Shown here in pieces: positions 43,726-47,418 of a stretch of 47,793 bases of DNA. Position 1 is the stretch's first letter. The number at the start of each line of letters is the position of its first letter. The translations under genes were made by a program, and so were the position numbers. Source of the stretch: a virus (lineage: Duplodnaviria > Caudoviricetes); IMG/VR virus record IMGVR_UViG_3300044518_000068, positions 1 through 47,793 of that record; one strand, given 5' to 3'. Below the pieces are notes generated by a model. It searched no databases, was not told the origin of the DNA, and saw only the letters and a list, made by a program, of their open reading frames with translations.

Positions 43726-44265
43726 ATGGCGCTGGCCGACCTTGCCGCGCTCGACCGCCACAAGCCGGGGGGCTTCCCGCCTGGCTACCGCGCCGACGTA
43801 CGCACCTTCTACTCGCCCGTGGACGACGTCCACGGAGCGCTGCTCGACCTCGTCCGGTCAGCGACGTCCTCACTGGTCGTCGCCATGTACGGCTTCGACG
43901 ACGACGAGCTGGCCGAGGCGATCCGAGAGAAACTCGCCGACGAGCGGGTGTTCGTCCAGCTCACCCTCGACTCCAGCCAGGCCGCTGGCGTGCACGAGCG
44001 GCAGATCCTCGCCACCGAGTCGTATCCGGCGTCCAGCGTCGCGATCGGCAGGAGCGAGCACGGCGCGATCATGCACATGAAGGTGCTGATCGTGGACGGC
44101 GTCTACCGGGTCAGCGGCTCGACCAACTGGAGCCACAGCGGCGAGGCGCTCCAAGACAACGAGCTGACGGTCATCTGCGATCCGGTGCTGGCCGCGGAAG
44201 CCCGCGCACGGGTCGACGCCATCCACCACCACATGCTCAACAGCGCGCGGGCGGGCGCCCGGTGA
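43726..44265 (+). CDS. Single-domain phospholipase D/Nuc-family (HKD) protein
   Basis: HMKVLIVD (HxKxxxxD), GSTNWS, DNE. Confidence 0.9.
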
Positions 44266-45486: not shown

Positions 45487-45831
45487 TTGAGCTCTCCGAT
45501 GCCGGAGGACCCGGCGACAGCCCTGGCGCTGGAGCGGCTGCGCGGCGTGGTCGGGGAGTCCTTTGCCGAGATCAAGGGTTCGCTGGCGCTGTTGGTGCAG
45601 CGCAACGACCAGAACGATCGGGAGCTCGGCCAGCACCGCATCGAGCTGGTCGATCACGATCGACGGCTCGGTGAGGTGGAGCGGGCCCTGGCTGTCCTGA
45701 CCCAGCGCGAGGTCGTACAGGAGCAGCACGAGACCAAGTCGACCGAGTTGAAGCGCTGGCTGATTGGAACTGCGGCCGCGTTCCTGTTGGTGGCCGTGAC
45801 TGCGGCTGCATCGCTGCTGACTGCCCACTGA
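45487..45831 (+). CDS. Coiled-coil protein with C-terminal TM, lysis accessory/holin-like
   Basis: ALERLRG...DHDRRLGEVE; C-terminal TM. Confidence 0.7.
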   Translation: MSSPMPEDPATALALERLRGVVGESFAEIKGSLALLVQRNDQNDRELGQHRIELVDHDRRLGEVERALAVLTQREVVQEQHETKSTELKRWLIGTAAAFLLVAVTAAASLLTAH

Positions 45832-45835
45832 ACTA

Positions 45836-45873
45836 CCGCCCCCGTCCCGGCCTTCAGGTCGGGGCGGGGGCGG
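45836..45873. terminator. Bidirectional terminator hairpin
   Basis: 17-bp GC stem between convergent genes. Confidence 0.8.
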
Positions 45874-45884
45874 CTTCGTCACGT

Positions 45885-46106
45885 CTAGCGCAGGTCGGTG
45901 CGGGCGCCCTGTCCCGGGCGGCCGACTTGGGCGGCGCGAACCTCGGCCGCACGGTAGCGAGCACGAGGCCGGCTGCTGGTGGGATGGGGCTGAAAGTCGT
46001 GGGCCTGAACCTTCCAGCGGGAGAGGGTGCGTCGCGCGGAGCCGGAGCTCGCGGCTCCCAGGTACTCGACCACCTGGTCGATGGTCCAGAGTTCGGGTTC
46101 GGCCAT
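45885..46106 (-). CDS. Small MerR/Xis-like HTH regulator (Aca-like position)
   Basis: LWTIDQVVEYLG...SARRTLSRW...RPGQGARTDL; TGATG-coupled to upstream gene. Confidence 0.78.
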   Translation of the reverse strand: MAEPELWTIDQVVEYLGAASSGSARRTLSRWKVQAHDFQPHPTSSRPRARYRAAEVRAAQVGRPGQGARTDLR

Positions 46107-46405
46107 CAGGTGGTCTCGTGGCTGGTGATGATGGCCTCGCGAATCTCGGCGGCGGTGTCGTCGCTGATGGTGATCCAGGAGTCGACGTCGCGGTCGTCCG
46201 GGTTGCTGCGGAGGAGCTTGGGGCGCACGGGCTGGGTGTTGAGGATGATGTCGTCGCCGTCGATGTCGACGAGCTGGGCCAGCGTGGCGTGGATGGCGGC
46301 GTGCGCGTCGGCGCGGGGGAGGCCAGTCAGCTCCTGGATGTTGTCGAGAAGGTCGTAGCCGCCGATGGTGCGGCCGGGGCGGAGGCTGTAGATCGTGGTG
46401 CTCAC
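46106..46405 (-). CDS. Small acidic hypothetical protein, anti-CRISPR candidate
   Basis: 99 aa, about 17 D/E versus 8 K/R; AGGAG RBS before GTG 46405; function inferred from context only. Confidence 0.65.
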   Translation of the reverse strand: MSTTIYSLRPGRTIGGYDLLDNIQELTGLPRADAHAAIHATLAQLVDIDGDDIILNTQPVRPKLLRSNPDDRDVDSWITISDDTAAEIREAIITSHETT

Positions 46406-46444
46406 GGAGGTCTCCTGTCGCTGCGATTGGTGGACTCGGACATA

Positions 46445-46468
46445 ACCTTGCCTCACGTGAGGCAAGGT
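46445..46468. promoter_or_regulatory. Perfect 24-bp palindromic operator
   Basis: ACCTTGCCTCAC|GTGAGGCAAGGT between the HTH operon and the mini-array. Confidence 0.8.
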
Positions 46469-46557
46469 CTCAAGGGTGCCAGCAGTATGACTATTTGGAG
46501 CTCCTGGCGTCGGCCGGATTCGTATGACAGAGTGTCAGTTGTCCGCGTGAGCGGGCA

Positions 46558-46743
46558 CCGTTCCCCGCACCGGCGGGGTTGCCCTGCGATCTGCTGAACG
46601 CTGATGTGACAGCAGGGGTTGGCCCCGCGTTCGCGGGGATGGCCCATGGCCCTGTTTCGCATGATCGTTGGTCCCGCGCTCGCGGGCCTGGCCCACGGCC
46701 CTGTTTCACATACTCGTTGGGCCCGCGCTCGCGGGTGGCAGAC
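46558..46743 (+). CRISPR. Cas-less mini-array of four degenerate type I-E-like repeats
   Basis: Repeats at 46558 CCGTTCCCCGCACCGGCGGGGTTGCCCT, 46618 GTTGGCCCCGCGTTCGCGGGGATGGCCC, 46667 GTTGGTCCCGCGCTCGCGGGCCTGGCCC, 46716 GTTGGGCCCGCGCTCGCGGGTGGCAGAC; periods 60, 49, 49. Confidence 0.8.
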
Positions 46744-46776
46744 CGCCCCGCTCGGCTTCGGCCGGGCGGGGCGGTC
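46741..46776. terminator. Terminator hairpin closing the mini-array
   Basis: GACCGCCCCGCTCGGC-TTCG-GCCGGGCGGGGCGGTC. Confidence 0.8.
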
Positions 46777-46800
46777 TCGTCGTGCCGGGCCCGTCGGCGG

Positions 46801-46998
46801 TCAGCTCGGGCTGATGCCGGCACGGCGGAGGGCCTCCCACAGCTGGGCGATGTGCTCGGAGGTGGGCTCGACCTGGACAGCGGCGGCCGCGGCCTCGACC
46901 TCGGCGCGCGCGCCGGGTGGCGCGTCGCGCCAGACCGCGGCGAGTTGGTCGAGCGCGGCGGTGTGCCCGGGCGGCGGGTCGGGCAGGGGGCTCGTCAT
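46801..46998 (-). CDS. Small hypothetical protein
   Basis: GGAG RBS before ATG 46998. Confidence 0.6.
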   Translation of the reverse strand: MTSPLPDPPPGHTAALDQLAAVWRDAPPGARAEVEAAAAAVQVEPTSEHIAQLWEALRRAGISPS

Positions 46999-47353: not shown

Positions 47354-47418
47354 GGGCAGAACCGACAAGGCCGCCCTGCCCGCCGGGCGCGTGCTCGGCG
47401 GGCAGGGCGGCCTCTTGT

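Follow-up and report, generated by a model that had tools for sequence, protein, structure and literature searches.

Downstream of the lysis genes of a temperate soil actinophage, a gene for a small acidic protein (99 aa; hereafter ORF99) is coupled to a helix-turn-helix (HTH) gene and lies back-to-back with a type I-E-like CRISPR mini-array. By analogy with AcrIF24/Cracr, we put at roughly 0.5 the probability that ORF99 is an anti-CRISPR protein (Acr) coupled to the short guides of this array, with the HTH protein predicted to repress the operon at an upstream palindrome; that ORF99 is an Acr of either kind, coupled to the array or not, appears likely. The coupled-Acr reading draws on the linkage between ORF99 and arrays, the short spacers, the acidity of the protein, its fusions to HTH domains, the covariation of the HTH recognition helix with the operator, the prevalence of type I-E systems among the hosts and the AcrIF24/Cracr precedent. 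As a whole, the cassette is best read as a type I-E parallel of AcrIF24/Cracr, combining a candidate Acr with putative short-guide RNAs.

The window, i.e., the whole 47,793-nt stretch analysed here (a 47.8 kb virus record, GC 70.6%), contains genes for an integrase, RecT, terminase, portal, capsid and tape measure proteins, and a GH25 endolysin, which identifies it as a temperate actinophage. Between the tail and lysis genes lies a 179-aa phospholipase D-like gene (43726-44265, + strand; PLDc_2, E 2e-13). Spacers from Streptomycetaceae arrays match parts of the window (23/23, 20/20 and 22/23 nt), and this phage lineage is thus targeted by related hosts. Run X1, which may be where the window came from, has one contig identical to the window over 45500-46895, and positions 46545-46761 are identical in a contig from a second study.

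ORF99 (46106..46405, − strand) starts with GTG behind a ribosome-binding site and encodes a protein of pI 4.4 with 17 D/E versus 8 K/R residues. An alternative start, a TTG at 46465 that would lengthen the frame to 119 aa, lies within the palindrome; the homologues start at the position of 46405. The 73-aa HTH gene (45885..46106, − strand) overlaps the ORF99 stop codon by one base (TGATG), which bears out the coupling of the two genes proposed in a sequence-only reading of this DNA, as does the perfect 24-bp palindrome at 46445..46468, located 39 nt before ORF99, for the upstream inverted repeat. The array occupies 46558-46739 on the + strand, and is divergent from the operon on the − strand, as had been stated. 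It consists of four repeats and three spacers of 31, 20 and 20 nt: repeat 1 (46558..46586), spacer 1 (31 nt; 46587..46617), repeat 2 (46618..46646), which is 22/28 identical to the nearest host type I-E repeats, spacer 2 (20 nt; 46647..46666), the degenerate repeat 3 (46667..46695), spacer 3 (20 nt; 46696..46715) and the degenerate repeat 4 (46716..46739), which runs into a 17-bp hairpin at the array end (46740..46777, + strand). The array region folds better than 200/200 shuffled sequences (z −4.4). On the other side, a GC-rich hairpin (45836..45873) separates the HTH gene from a convergent lysis-region gene. Both hairpins, which had been taken for terminators bounding the unit, are present and likely terminate transcription, but neither is followed by a T-run or passes a strict terminator scan that requires one; the sole site in the window that passes it is a strong 21-bp hairpin with a T-tail at 47368-47413.

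The HTH protein is basic (pI 11.1) and carries a C-terminal RPGQGARTD motif. It matches excisionase/regulator (E 6e-4) and DNA-binding (E 8e-4) profiles in PHROG and, weakly, CarH and Gp37 (E 0.3-0.9), with leads to MerR_1/HTH_17 in Atlas; at the sequence level, it weakly resembles the winged helices of the MerR/Xis (HTH_17) type. A survey of its homologues' neighbourhoods, suggested in the sequence-only reading, proved productive: HTH relatives drawn from viral and genome collections sit behind many unrelated acidic genes, encoding proteins of 59, 79, 84, 99, 124 and 138 aa, among others, often with a palindrome. No known Acr was recognized among these neighbours, which were compared without Acr profiles. 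The same HTH/operator type accompanies acidic families of 84 aa (L027, L029 and L059), 59 aa (L052, L054 and L060) and 79 aa (L062), as well as further small acidic genes in L032, L037, L061 and L065. These families, mostly without arrays, are candidates for additional anti-defence genes.

The palindrome is the longest in the window, and its 18-bp core occurs there only once, even with up to 3 mismatches allowed. Because a length of 24 bp is also reached in 2 of 30 Markov shuffles and is thus only modestly beyond chance, the case for an operator comes from position and conservation, a similar palindromic site preceding the homologous operons. By eye, the palindrome spans the spacer between −35-like (46468-46473) and −10-like (46445-46450) hexamers on the − strand, and the L050 homologue displays a clearer promoter, TTGACA-17 nt-CATAGT, again by eye; a strict promoter scan called none. 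The recognition helix covaries with the half-site: HTH proteins with SAR[RK]T helices are associated with GCCTCAC in 8 of the 9 called sites (called in 9/12 loci), and those with SARG helices with GCATCAC in 5/5 (called in 5/10 loci). Given this covariation and the varied acidic genes upstream, the HTH protein behaves like an Aca and is predicted to repress the operon via the palindrome. In five loci (L001, L030, L033, L036 and L063), a conserved short inverted repeat of the TCAC-N8-GTGA type, which is absent from the window, lies between the operator and the first repeat, and is possibly an array promoter or a second regulator site.

As in the acr-aca operons of Aca1-Aca10 described in the available text of PMC9410906, a small gene precedes the HTH gene and an inverted repeat falls within the core promoter, where Aca inverted repeats are located; here too, the coupled pair resides in a mobile element, with a promoter palindrome (by eye) and an HTH found behind diverse genes. 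Unlike Aca1-Aca10, the HTH is MerR/Xis-like with an RPGQGARTD tail, has no named-Aca match in Pfam, NCBIfam or PDB sequences, and follows no validated acr gene. The earlier description of the cassette as acr-aca-like thus gains partial support from the varied acidic genes before the HTH, the helix-operator covariation and the association of ORF99 with type I-E repeats across three layouts (see below). Its extension to a single operator for the protein and RNA halves is conjectural: the only operator lies across the promoter predicted for the two protein genes, and the ORF99-array pair also occurs without the HTH (L080, L251 and L253).

Both protein families are unnamed, as had been anticipated. 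A single-sequence search with ORF99 retrieved 4 proteins, whereas a 12-sequence profile search yielded 154 clusters at 90% identity, all hypothetical (50 representatives at 50%), with names from Streptomyces, Kitasatospora, Embleya, Thermomonospora and Microbispora. The family was found in 9 of 401 family-level genomes and 4 of 401 genus-level genomes, and phage ZL12 has an unannotated member. Acidity is uniform across 102 members (median pI 4.3, net charge −13), and forms of ~170 aa are fused to an N-terminal HTH domain. Conserved residues include G11, R12, Y17, H35, D73, W77 and R89, along with many acidic positions. Scans of ORF99 against Pfam, PHROGs and NCBIfam gave no significant match, and neither ORF99 nor the HTH protein matched named Acr or Aca families in the general libraries Pfam, PHROGs, NCBIfam and PDB sequences; within these libraries, ORF99 shows no homology to a known Acr. 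An AlphaFold model built from 102 sequences (pLDDT 93) predicts a strand-helix-helix-strand-strand-helix topology. Neither this nor the first, lower-confidence model had a match in the PDB by Foldseek. A viral fold library produced none either, nor did a VIA wide search with the first model (best Z 5.8, with MerR-like winged helices reaching Z 4-4.6), and Atlas gave no usable match, but a weak fold match is no proof of a new fold. A helix pair with PqqD-like sequence in 61/102 members at E ≤ 0.1 (best 6.5e-5) might offer a weak lead, and 7/102 show a weak HU-like resemblance, while HU-likeness of the family came out at E 0.36-1.1 only in another comparison; PqqD/RRE and HU/IHF are absent among the fold matches, and the resemblance is limited to the sequence of the helix pair. 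A relationship between ORF99 and its own HTH protein was rejected (profile comparison probability 0.2%).

Among characterized inhibitors, AcrIE10 resembles the ORF99 family in acting on type I-E systems, for which ORF99 is a candidate, and in its fusion to a repressor domain, comparable to the N-terminal HTH fusions here; AcrIF24 also carries a fused repressor domain. However, as described in the available text of PMC13530269, AcrIE10 has an RHH repressor, is found on Klebsiella plasmids and has no array, and it shares no sequence match with ORF99.

To assess the linkage of ORF99 to arrays, we collapsed duplicates and compared 24 distinct loci containing ORF99 with 43 that have the HTH alone; three ORF99 loci with a partial first match were dropped, namely, L031, a truncated remnant without an array, and L250 and L257, both with arrays. 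A repeat unit was found beside ORF99 in 17 of 21 loci versus 1 of 43 HTH-only loci, with short flanks included, and in 16/17 versus 1/40 where flanks are complete (Fisher p 5e-12, a value inflated by relatedness, the loci being related prophages rather than independent). Among the HTH-only controls are distant HTHs (29-45% identity) from hosts in which this repeat type may be absent, and two of the controls, L037 and L067, have repeats by eye that the detector missed. An array is visible by eye in L251, the sole ORF99 miss with full flanks, and the remaining misses fall on short contigs. Three layouts are observed: the array is upstream and divergent, with the HTH, in 13 loci and L252; downstream and co-oriented in L080 and L251 (without the HTH) and L250 (fused); and downstream and convergent in L253 (ORF99 alone) and L090 (fused). 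The array tracks the acidic gene through all three, with or without the HTH, which argues for a functional tie rather than hitch-hiking or a toxin-antitoxin pair. In L031 (3367-3500), the HTH gene accompanying the ORF99 remnant is intact, and another gene stands in place of the promoter and array; in L035 (3760-3900), short-period repeats follow a gene in which the HTH is fused to some other domain, and ORF99 was not detected; and in L090 (2192-3271, − strand), a gene that looks TROVE/Ro60-like converges on the array of the fused ORF99 homologue.

Of the 46 repeat periods beside ORF99, some of them counted on both strands, 28 fall at 48-51, 4 at 54-56 and 14 at 60-62, whereas in 80 host loci 1545 of 1615 periods are 60-62 and none is 48-50. 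Among 40 phage spacers cut out directly, a count that includes one array twice, 24 are 19-22 nt long, 2 are 25-26 nt and 14 are 30-33 nt; most are thus ~12 nt shorter than host spacers. Steps of ~6 nt fit the Cas7 stoichiometry. Some arrays, of the L034 type, contain full-length spacers only, so that length discrimination is insufficient as the whole explanation. The 5′ seed of spacer 2 recurs in spacer 3 and in the terminal spacers of three other phages (L001, L087 and L091), and L091 and L092 have a near-identical long spacer in common. The repeats of the phage arrays best match one clade of hosts, to which L145, L147 and L155 belong.

Type I-E cse1 is present in 180 of 401 Streptomycetaceae genomes (~45%). 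No target of the guides emerged. The short spacers had no match in the cas3 or cse1 promoters of the 80 host type I-E loci, which may exclude the phage's own host (PAM ANN, at least 10 PAM-proximal positions), and the window spacers against the same cas loci gave noise only; in several hosts, a PAM-flanked match of 9 nt near cse1 turned out to lie within the host's own CreR spacer and was discarded. Together with its PAM, the shared seed occurs 28 times across 22 of 201 genomes versus 8 for a reversed control; 9 of the 28 belong to two coding contexts that are conserved, and a regulatory site common to the matches was not found. A viral scan for guide targets returned 44 stretches, of which the 9 with GC of at least 60% were inspected, none being convincing, and neither spacer 1 nor the 14 long spacers (the latter against the fetched phage loci) matched a phage in these limited databases. 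CreR-like self-targeting is seen in 9 of 56 other host loci, 8 of them at the cse1 promoter, but in 0 of 24 loci of the repeat-matching clade, which makes plain CreR mimicry by the phage array doubtful; the guides may instead match their target only weakly, or act on a site away from the cas locus. The host units are antisense, lie in the cas3-cse1 intergenic region ~80-270 nt before cse1 (L106, L111, L114, L115, L117, L118, L119 and L122) and carry seeds of 12-14 nt that match, with an AAG PAM, the cse1 promoter of the same locus, an apparent case of Cascade autoregulation in Streptomycetaceae judging from sequence. In the L131-L155 region of the cas set, cse1 shares one open frame with an upstream cas3-sized region (14/80 host loci), an apparent Cas3-Cse1 fusion.

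Phage mini-arrays beside acr genes are a known kind (10.1101/2023.03.03.530964, PMC10651486 and PMC11656645, in their available text), as is a bifunctional inhibitor such as AcrIE10. The closest parallel is AcrIF24/Cracr (10.1101/2024.10.29.618823), where, in the text available, an Acr-like gene is likewise tied to arrays of short guides (17-21 nt), under HTH regulation and in hosts with longer spacers; as in Cracr arrays, host-like repeats, shortened spacers and a likely terminator hairpin occur here within a phage. AcrIF24/Cracr belongs, however, to type I-F and Proteobacteria rather than to type I-E and Streptomycetaceae, and the protein families are unrelated; moreover, the repressor here is usually a separate gene, and the search for cas/creT promoter targets was null. 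CracrIE of a Salmonella prophage, from the same preprint, is also a type I-E multi-spacer phage array with 21-24 nt spacers and a degenerate last repeat, but it matches the host CreR and the casA promoter, whereas no such match was found for the window array, and the available text mentions no Acr partner for it. The word Streptomyces is absent from the main text of that preprint. Literature searches yielded nothing on the ORF99 family or on a native Streptomyces type I-E inhibitor; preprint supplementary tables might still list such arrays.

Under the coupled-Acr reading, the acidic protein would be made in a burst from the unrepressed promoter on incoming DNA, ending once the HTH protein accumulates, and host Cas6 would cut the array transcript. 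The 20-nt guides would then give rise to Cascade that is short of about two Cas7 subunits. ORF99 would block host Cascade of full length, or its Cas3 step, and leave the short complexes untouched; the latter would sequester Cas proteins and silence some promoter, as AcrIF24 and Cracr RNAs do in type I-F. Four-subunit complexes formed on Cracr guides of 17-21 nt escape binding by AcrIF24 (Liu et al., 10.1101/2024.10.29.618823, available text). A bolder version, in which the ORF99 family, with a new fold and a new Aca, would be the first of the type I-E inhibitors to read the length of Cascade, blocking host complexes with six Cas7 subunits and sparing or licensing those with four on phage guides, so that Streptomyces Cascade becomes a phage-programmed repressor of genes outside the cas locus, is rather unlikely.

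Alternatively, ORF99 might be an ordinary Acr stacked next to, rather than coupled with, an array that supplies Racr-like decoy RNAs sequestering Cas6/Cas7, with no spacer-directed targets. The null target searches and the degenerate repeats speak for such decoys, and Racrs, including RacrIE1/2, are phage repeat mimics known to adjoin acr genes (PMC10651486, available text). Racrs are, however, solitary repeat units, whereas the window carries four repeats with three defined spacers; a seed common to the terminal spacers of four phages and spacer lengths in ~6-nt steps are likewise at odds with decoys, and arrays are mostly missing from the other acidic families linked to the HTH. We regard this explanation as unlikely. 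So, too, and with somewhat less to recommend it, is a cofactor role in which ORF99 puts host Cascade to use with phage guides, for example by helping to load short guides from degenerate repeats or by turning Cascade into a non-cutting repressor of rival phages or defence genes. The near-obligate linkage, including the co-oriented layouts without an HTH, the mixture of 20- and 32-nt spacers and the near-identical long spacer of L091 and L092 would suit such a cofactor, and viral mini-arrays that target rivals are known (PMC11656645, available text). Yet the search for rival-phage protospacers was null in the limited databases used. Inhibitors are typically strongly acidic and made in an Aca-type autorepressed burst, and both the predicted burst and the strong acidity of ORF99 point in that direction.

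It is improbable that ORF99 counters another defence or host process and merely travels with arrays in an anti-defence island: the same HTH does serve many unrelated acidic genes without arrays, and the weak PqqD- and HU-like helix-pair resemblances might fit this reading, but through rearrangements the array stays with the ORF99 gene and not with the HTH. A toxin-antitoxin module, which the small coupled bicistron and its autoregulatory palindrome might recall, is highly improbable, given that ORF99 occurs without the HTH (in the three loci named above), the HTH pairs with unrelated partners and the scans revealed no toxin domain.

Overall, ORF99 is a sharply defined inhibitor candidate for the type I-E systems of ~45% of the sampled Streptomycetaceae (180/401), and the coupled-Acr reading makes a testable prediction, namely, a difference between 20-nt and 32-nt guides. 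The HTH protein can serve as bait, and several further acidic families have already been obtained with it. If the coupled-Acr reading is true, the synergy between protein and RNA inhibitors would reach beyond type I-F, and such cassettes could switch the endogenous Cascade of Streptomyces from cutting to silencing.
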